DNA from: Escherichia coli
Lineage (GTDB): Bacteria > Pseudomonadota > Gammaproteobacteria > Enterobacterales > Enterobacteriaceae
DNA length: 768 nt
Assembly: GCF_003334255.1 (NCBI RefSeq)
Contig: NZ_QOWU01000192.1
Direction: 5' to 3' (one strand)
Part shown: in pieces, positions 56-331 of the stretch
Position numbering within the stretch: the first letter of the stretch is position 1
How the letters are laid out: the number at the start of each line of letters is the position of its first letter
Made by a program: the position numbers and the translations under genes
The notes under the pieces: generated by a model
What the model was told of the DNA's origin: nothing
The model's input: only the letters and a program-made list of their open reading frames with translations
The model's database searches: none

Positions 56-331
56 GTGGCTTCTGTTTCTATCAGCTGTCCCTCCTGTTCAGCTACTGAC
101 GGGGTGGTGCGTAACGGCAAAAGCACCGCCGGACATCAGCGCTATCTCTGCTCTCACTGCCGTAAAACATGGCAACTGCAGTTCACTTACACCGCTTCTC
201 AACCCGGTACGCACCAGAAAATCATTGATATGGCCATGAATGGCGTTGGATGCCGGGCAACAGCCCGCATTATGGGCGTTGGCCTCAACACGATTTTACG
301 TCACTTAAAAAACTCAGGCCGCAGTCGGTAA
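56..331 (+). CDS. insA: InsA, IS1 transposition repressor / DNA-binding protein (91 aa), zinc-finger plus helix-turn-helix
   Basis: Seen in sequence: ORF 56-331 with GTG start and TAA stop at 329-331. Translation [43 protein letters not shown]...[10 protein letters not shown] matches IS1 InsA as I recall it. Cys pairs CPSC (nt 77-88) and CSHC (nt 149-160) form the zinc-finger-like motif. An SD precedes the start. Confidence 0.95.

Follow-up and report, generated by a model that had tools for sequence, protein, structure and literature searches.

The window, by which we mean the whole 768-nt stretch of DNA analysed here, is a complete IS1 element (768 bp) with the sequence type of IS1A/IS1E. 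For comparison, all six IS1 copies annotated in Escherichia coli K-12 MG1655 were extracted, and no mismatch to the window was found over 768 positions against either IS1A (19796-20563) or IS1E (3583428-3584195) of NC_000913, whose annotated ends are also the ends of the window. The ends, insA, the A6C site, the TAA stop codon and the insB frame of these two K-12 copies are all the same in the window. Their 768-bp sequence has been described as the IS1 'consensus', and IS1A and IS1E, neither of which differs in sequence from the window, differ about twofold in activity by genomic context (PMC12428005). The window shows the features of an IS1 family insertion sequence, namely a length of ca. 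768 bp, inverted repeats of ca. 23 bp, identity to IS1A, an insA frame with insB' in the -1 frame, and a DDE domain. A megablast search found matches to the window in 4,971 of 5,426 complete E. coli genomes at a median of 11 places per genome. Thousands of records matched it at 100%, many of them over the full 768 bases and annotated as 'IS1-like element IS1A family transposase'.

The left terminal inverted repeat (IRL; positions 1-23) pairs with the right one (IRR; 746-768) at 78% complementarity. The two ends of the window agree at 21 of their first 30 positions, and the repeats are imperfect (GGTGATG... and GGTAATG...). On the plus strand, to which all features below also belong, a sigma-70-like promoter match lies at 8-35 (CTGCCA and TATGAT separated by 16 nt; 9 of 12 positions, a consensus match only). 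This putative promoter overlaps IRL and would be consistent with the weak IS1 promoter PIS1, which is known to overlap IRL partially and to be repressed by InsA (PMC12428005).

The zero-frame gene insA (91 aa) occupies 56-331, from a GTG start at 56 to a TAA stop at 329-331, according to its ORF translation, and is annotated as insA1 and insA6 in NC_000913. Its product carries the Pfam domains Zn_ribbon_InsA (residues 1-36) and HTH_Tnp_IS1 (residues 43-86); InsA is a zinc-ribbon plus HTH repressor, the repressor role being taken from the literature. The -1 frame (B'-insB) is open over 229-753 and ends with a TAA at 751-753. From the slip site to this stop it comprises 148 codons, which encode the DDE domain, and 310-753 is the DDE part that would be read after a slip. 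Joining 56-310 to 310-753 gives the insAB' transframe gene (56-753) for a 232-aa transposase. In this fusion, DDE_Tnp_IS1 (PF03400) was found on residues 102-232, covering model positions 1-131 of 131 with 258 bits. The NCBIfam model NF033558 ('IS1 family transposase'; cutoff 100) gave 243.2 bits for the fusion and 91 bits for InsA alone. Since the zinc ribbon and HTH are separated in this way from the DDE domain, the slip would join a DNA-binding module to a catalytic module.

The RefSeq (PGAP) CDS of an identical K-12 copy consists of two joined pieces labelled 'programmed frameshift' (WP_094096600.1) and is equivalent to 56-753 of the window. Records differ in this respect: the curated K-12 record NC_000913.3 lists insA and insB as two CDSs, and NZ_CP032667.1 (PGAP) has a single joined 'programmed frameshift' CDS. 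Listing two genes implies a separate InsB of 167 aa, contrary to the literature. The 232-aa protein with a Lys-Lys junction is present on more than 100 contigs under the name 'IS1-like element IS1A family transposase', and the 232-aa protein with a Lys-Asn junction is on record on only two.

The slippery sequence A_AAA_AAC (A6C) lies at 307-313 and is the sole AAAAAAC in the window. The zero-frame codons at the site are TTA (305), AAA (308) and AAC (311), which sets the run in the phase A_AAA_AAC of insA. Fifteen nucleotides, or five codons, separate the heptamer from the insA stop, the first base of which is the 16th nucleotide after the C. A single slip at this point gives the 232-aa fusion, and the tandem-slip form, which has Asn at the junction, also has 232 aa. 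The original prediction had described an intact heptamer in the insA frame, a stop 16 nt downstream, and zero and -1 frames placed so that a slip yields a 232-aa InsAB'; all of these statements hold, the distance being counted to the first base of the stop. It had also reported neither a point mutation in the A6C run nor a frame-breaking indel. With no mismatch to K-12 IS1A or IS1E, and hence no indel within 56-753, the alignment agrees with it.

The bare count of the motif was rejected as evidence for the site, since A6C irrespective of phase and on either strand appeared in 19 of 200 shuffles (ca. 10%) and is therefore not rare. Within the 103-nt overlap of the two frames, an in-phase A6C arose in 71 of 20,000 dinucleotide-preserving shuffles (0.36%), and any in-phase XXXYYYN in 1,717 of 20,000 dinucleotide shuffles (8.6%). 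The case for a real site therefore depends on phase, position and conservation, of which conservation is a stronger argument than rarity in shuffles. An in-phase A_AAA, a -1 frame that opens into a functional domain, and the same arrangement in diverged homologues were all found.

To assess conservation, nine elements were compared (the window and the loci L006, L009 and L093 to L098). The diverged relatives were recovered by tblastn on phage and plasmid records and included IsEc30 and copies from Vibrio harveyi, Klebsiella, Providencia, E. coli plasmids and Shigella plasmids. A 'distant' DNA search of plasmids returned no diverged relatives, its matches being saturated by copies at least 99% identical. 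IsEc30, located in prophage Rac-SA53, is 766 bp long and has 44% protein identity. The IsEc30/IS1N group, the V. harveyi element and the Shigella plasmid copies (ca. 766-768 bp) share the layout of the slip site with the window, although such diverged IS1-family elements have only ca. 44% protein and ca. 50% nucleotide identity and A6C is replaced by A6T or A_AAA_AGC in some of them.

In all nine elements the insA-like ORF has 90-91 aa, the -1 frame opens into the DDE part, and TTA AAA A.. occurs in phase at the equivalent position, at identities of the coding region to the window down to ca. 49-52% at the nucleotide level. The 11-nt core TTAAAAAACTC is unchanged even in elements whose coding regions are 49-52% identical to that of the window, and its synonymous sites are fixed across the nine elements, Leu always being TTA and Lys always AAA. 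The stop that follows the heptamer slot is TAA, never TGA or TAG, and stands exactly five codons on in 9/9 elements, though the intervening residues differ; in the -1 frame this TAA overlaps conserved V/I-T codons of InsAB', so that a role in recoding is confounded with protein constraint. The heptamer itself is less constant: A6C or A6T is present in seven of the nine family members, A6T being carried by one E. coli plasmid copy.

The Shigella flexneri and S. sonnei plasmid copies (L094 and L097) have A_AAA_AGC (Leu-Lys-Ser), with the heptamer slot at locus positions 449-455. These copies have five A's, and the A_AAA tetramer alone is available for slipping. The S. flexneri copy has a RefSeq transposase CDS of 692 nt, a length that requires a frameshift, and the -1 frame of the S. 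sonnei copy is truncated after 81 codons. Judged from the aligned elements, the conserved core appears to be A_AAA (307-310 in the window) rather than the whole heptamer. The term 'slippery heptamer', used in the original prediction, is correct in that the motif is present, but it may overstate the signal, given these Shigella variants and the single tRNA-Lys slip described in PMC1851650.

Taken together, the window very probably contains the known IS1 programmed -1 frameshift site within a complete element of the IS1A/IS1E type, operating without a stimulator and most likely by a single tRNA-Lys slip. Nothing in the window sequence argues against the -1 frameshift explanation. The mechanism would be as described below. 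Transcription from the weak left-end promoter would yield an mRNA that is normally translated as insA (91 aa), the product of which is a repressor and binds the element ends. In ca. 1-2% of passes, the ribosome would slip back by one base on the A-run at 307-313, most likely by re-pairing of the peptidyl-tRNA-Lys from AAA at 308-310 to AAA at 307-309. The slipped ribosome would miss the insA TAA at 329-331 and read the -1 frame to 753, producing the 232-aa InsAB' transposase with zinc ribbon, HTH and DDE domain. The slip would be unaided by RNA structure or by a Shine-Dalgarno-like stimulator, and this lack would keep its efficiency low and the transposase scarce relative to the repressor.

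While the anatomy, reference identity, domains and conservation of the site were determined here, the frameshift rate, the repression by InsA and the effect on transposition are taken from the literature. Using chromosomal lacZ reporters, InsAB' was found to be produced from 1.6% of IS1E transcripts (PMC12903888), and ca. 2% frameshifting by SDS-PAGE is attributed to Escoubas 1991 as quoted in the same paper. In PMC1851650, which cites Sekine & Ohtsubo 1992, a single peptidyl-tRNA-Lys is described as slipping -1 from AAA to the overlapping AAA at A_AAA with an efficiency of 0.3-1%. In E. coli, A_AA.A_AA.C frameshifts with low efficiency, and it is employed by IS elements where little transposase is wanted (PMC4066793). 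When A6C was replaced with the in-frame GAAGAAAC (GA2GA3C), transposition increased ca. 1000-fold, and this increase was largely reversed by InsA (PMC12428005). PMC12903888 and PMC12428005 both date from 2025 and used IS1E. According to published work, it is chiefly the frameshift frequency that governs the InsA:InsAB' ratio and transposition (PMC12428005, PMC12903888); the original prediction had likewise named this frequency as setting both.

We searched for stimulators on both sides of the site. Downstream, the predicted folds of 314-400 (z = 0.16) and 280-440 (z = 0.78) were no better than those of shuffles, and the consensus fold of eight family members reached only -4.63 kcal/mol with no convincing covariation near the site. 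The lone small helix of this consensus fold begins more than 38 nt downstream of the site and is broken in the IS1A group. No Rfam match was obtained at E values up to 10. Upstream, none of GGAG, GAGG, AGGA, AAGG or GGGG, taken as Shine-Dalgarno-like motifs, occurs in the 36 nt at 271-306. A possible downstream pseudoknot stimulator has been mentioned (PMC12428005); it is without support from the folding and covariation tests, though a weak or tertiary element may exist. The missing stimulators agree with the reported low-efficiency single tRNA-Lys slip.

A stimulated -1 frameshift cassette of the dnaX, IS911 or IS3 type was considered and rejected, there being neither a structure 5-9 nt downstream nor a Shine-Dalgarno-like element upstream. 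The IS3/IS911 family resembles IS1 in fusing an upstream DNA-binding ORF to a downstream catalytic one by a -1 slip on an A-rich motif, and in dnaX such a slip, also on an A-rich motif, sets the product ratio. However, IS3/IS911 and dnaX have an efficient heptamer of the A_AAA_AAG type, a Shine-Dalgarno-like element upstream and a hairpin or pseudoknot downstream, and frameshift with high efficiency (PMC4066793), whereas the window has a low-efficiency motif and neither stimulator was found. Another likeness is the CP/12K site of potato virus M, at which, as described for IS1, a single peptidyl-tRNA-Lys slips on A_AAA with very low efficiency (PMC1851650). That site differs in its eukaryotic viral context and in that the slip takes place beside a 'shifty' stop, the IS1 stop being five codons downstream.

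A recoding signal that extends beyond the A-run is conceivable, and we put it forward tentatively, as a suggestion that is more doubtful than not. In such a signal, the invariant TTA and the TAA at five codons would be working parts of a stimulator-free and deliberately inefficient device; the slip rate might, for instance, be adjusted by ribosomes that terminate or queue at the stop close by. The insA stop codon is said to affect frameshift efficiency, a finding ascribed to Sekine and Ohtsubo in 1992. In the present data such a role of TTA and TAA is confounded with constraint at the protein level, the TAA overlapping the V/I-T codons.

Among the other readings, a tandem slip on the full heptamer is the one that survives best, although it is unlikely. 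It is a variant of the same mechanism, in which the P-site tRNA-Lys and the A-site tRNA-Asn slip together, and would give Leu-Lys-Asn-Leu instead of Leu-Lys-Lys-Leu at the junction. The full X_XXY_YYZ pattern is in phase, the retention of A6C or A6T in seven of nine members is in line with it, and A_AA.A_AA.C is treated as a heptamer of IS1-family elements by Sharma et al. (PMC4066793); a Lys-Asn protein is on record, if only on the two contigs mentioned above. However, at the Shigella A_AAA_AGC sites a tRNA-Ser could not re-pair, and one of these copies is still annotated in RefSeq with a transframe transposase. The usual annotated junction is Lys-Lys, though this is a mere annotation convention, and a single peptidyl-tRNA-Lys slip is what PMC1851650 describes, citing Sekine & Ohtsubo 1992. 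From this secondary citation and the Shigella variants, the single-tRNA slip appears most likely.

Transcriptional slippage, in which RNA polymerase adds an A within the A6 run and rare in-frame mRNAs yield InsAB', is improbable. An mRNA with one extra A would be expected to encode exactly the Lys-Lys product, so that the product sequence alone is compatible with this route, and the DNA-level A7C of phage RCS47 (described below), annotated with a single insAB CDS, indicates that such a sequence encodes a coherent protein. Homopolymeric A-runs are known slippage sites according to PMC4066793, which cites Baranov 2005. Against this, what is conserved is A_AAA and its phase, not run length, the window having six A's and the Shigella relatives five; to a polymerase, the reading phase would be irrelevant. 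Appreciable slippage by E. coli RNA polymerase reportedly needs runs of ca. 8-9 or more, as Baranov and colleagues are said to have found in 2005. By this criterion, the six A's of the window fall short. Besides, the A6 tract of pDEST17 gave homogeneous A6 mRNA and yet was frameshifted (PMC1851650).

That insB is translated independently as 167 aa from the ATG at 250, the A-run being incidental, is very improbable. An ATG-initiated ORF of this length does exist at 250-753 and is annotated as insB1 and insB6 in NC_000913, but published work holds that insB has no protein of its own and identifies the fusion as the transposase (PMC12428005, PMC12903888). Furthermore, the DNA-binding zinc ribbon and HTH are confined to the insA part, the family retains the A-run, its phase and the 0/-1 arrangement, and PGAP annotates the fusion. 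It is scarcely credible that the window is a decayed relic in which the site survives by chance; dead copies do keep intact sites (IS1F with W163*, L013, L014 and L007), but the window has no differences from IS1A/IS1E, the source of over 99.9% of K-12 IS1 transposition (PMC12428005), both of its ends are intact, and the 232-aa frame is open.

We judge the IS1 copy in the window to be transposition-competent. The original prediction had reached the same conclusion from the intact cassette; the conclusion stands on other grounds, namely the identity of the whole element to the active IS1A and IS1E, which together account for the above share of IS1 transposition as determined in BW25113, but the inference from the cassette does not. 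An intact cassette is necessary but does not separate live from dead copies. A6C, TAA and the frame relation are preserved, without indels, in every one of the six K-12 copies. Relative to the window, IS1B/C and IS1D have 9 nt differences each and an open 232-aa fusion frame, with the changes L81F, S130R and L217Q in IS1B/C and L81F, S130R and H193Y in IS1D; nevertheless, IS1B/C/D are reported to be 'essentially incapable of transposing' (PMC12428005). IS1F has 73 nt differences, among them one that gives W163* in the insB frame; it is listed as a pseudogene, with its cassette intact. Although IS1B/C, IS1D and IS1F have the same length, A6C and TAA as the window, they hardly transpose (PMC12428005).

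Copies on viral contigs were surveyed by taking the best 80 IS1 loci by protein alignment, nearly all of which were near-identical, so that this is a small population survey and not a survey of diversity. Among these best 80 loci, A6C and TAA were kept in 79 of the 79 copies that covered the site. Two IMG/VR contig copies (L013 and L014) have 88-91% nucleotide identity, 22 and 2 gapped columns, respectively, and exact A6C and TAA; the fusion frame is cut short after 135 codons in L013 and 56 in L014. In a 769-bp IS1 on the E. coli plasmid NZ_CP064015.1 (L007), an additional C follows position 99 within insA, A6C and TAA are intact, and no transposase is annotated; either the copy is broken or the C is a sequencing error, and the cassette is intact all the same.

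A different alteration was seen in the copy of phage RCS47 (L008; FO818745.1, 107194-108489, reverse complement), which has A7C at the equivalent of window positions 306/307. With this additional A, insA and insB share a frame, and a single insAB CDS is annotated. This copy resembles the laboratory 'constitutive frameshift' mutants and, judging from its letters, would make transposase without InsA; the A7C could also be an error in sequencing the homopolymer. When the viral contigs were scanned for other fused copies with A7, there were no matches, so that the RCS47 variant does not recur there.

The finding itself is already known, the site having been characterised since 1989-1992 and re-measured on the exact sequence in 2025. 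What the analysis provides is a label for a very common mobile element and for the site that limits its activity; it contains no new biology. Annotators should treat the two ORFs as one transframe transposase gene and not as two genes or a pseudogene. The analysis is also of use in deciding if an individual IS1 copy is able to promote insertions, deletions and resistance-gene spread. A slip site that is intact is a poor indicator of activity, and such judgements should consider the whole element, with its ends, both frames and changes such as L81F.

Finally, the flanks of K-12 copies and a repeat inside insA were inspected. No target duplication was seen at the flanks of K-12 IS1A, IS1B, IS1C and IS1F, which suggests later rearrangement, for example by IS1-IS1 recombination or adjacent deletion. 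IS1E is flanked by the 9-bp direct repeat GACATTAAA, a target-site duplication, IS1D by the 9-bp direct repeat GACAATACG, and IsEc30 by a target duplication of 8 bp. Within insA, positions 105-117 and 204-216 form a 13-nt inverted repeat (TGGTGCGTAACGG and CCGGTACGCACCA; 92% complementary, 86 nt between the arms), which may be a chance match.
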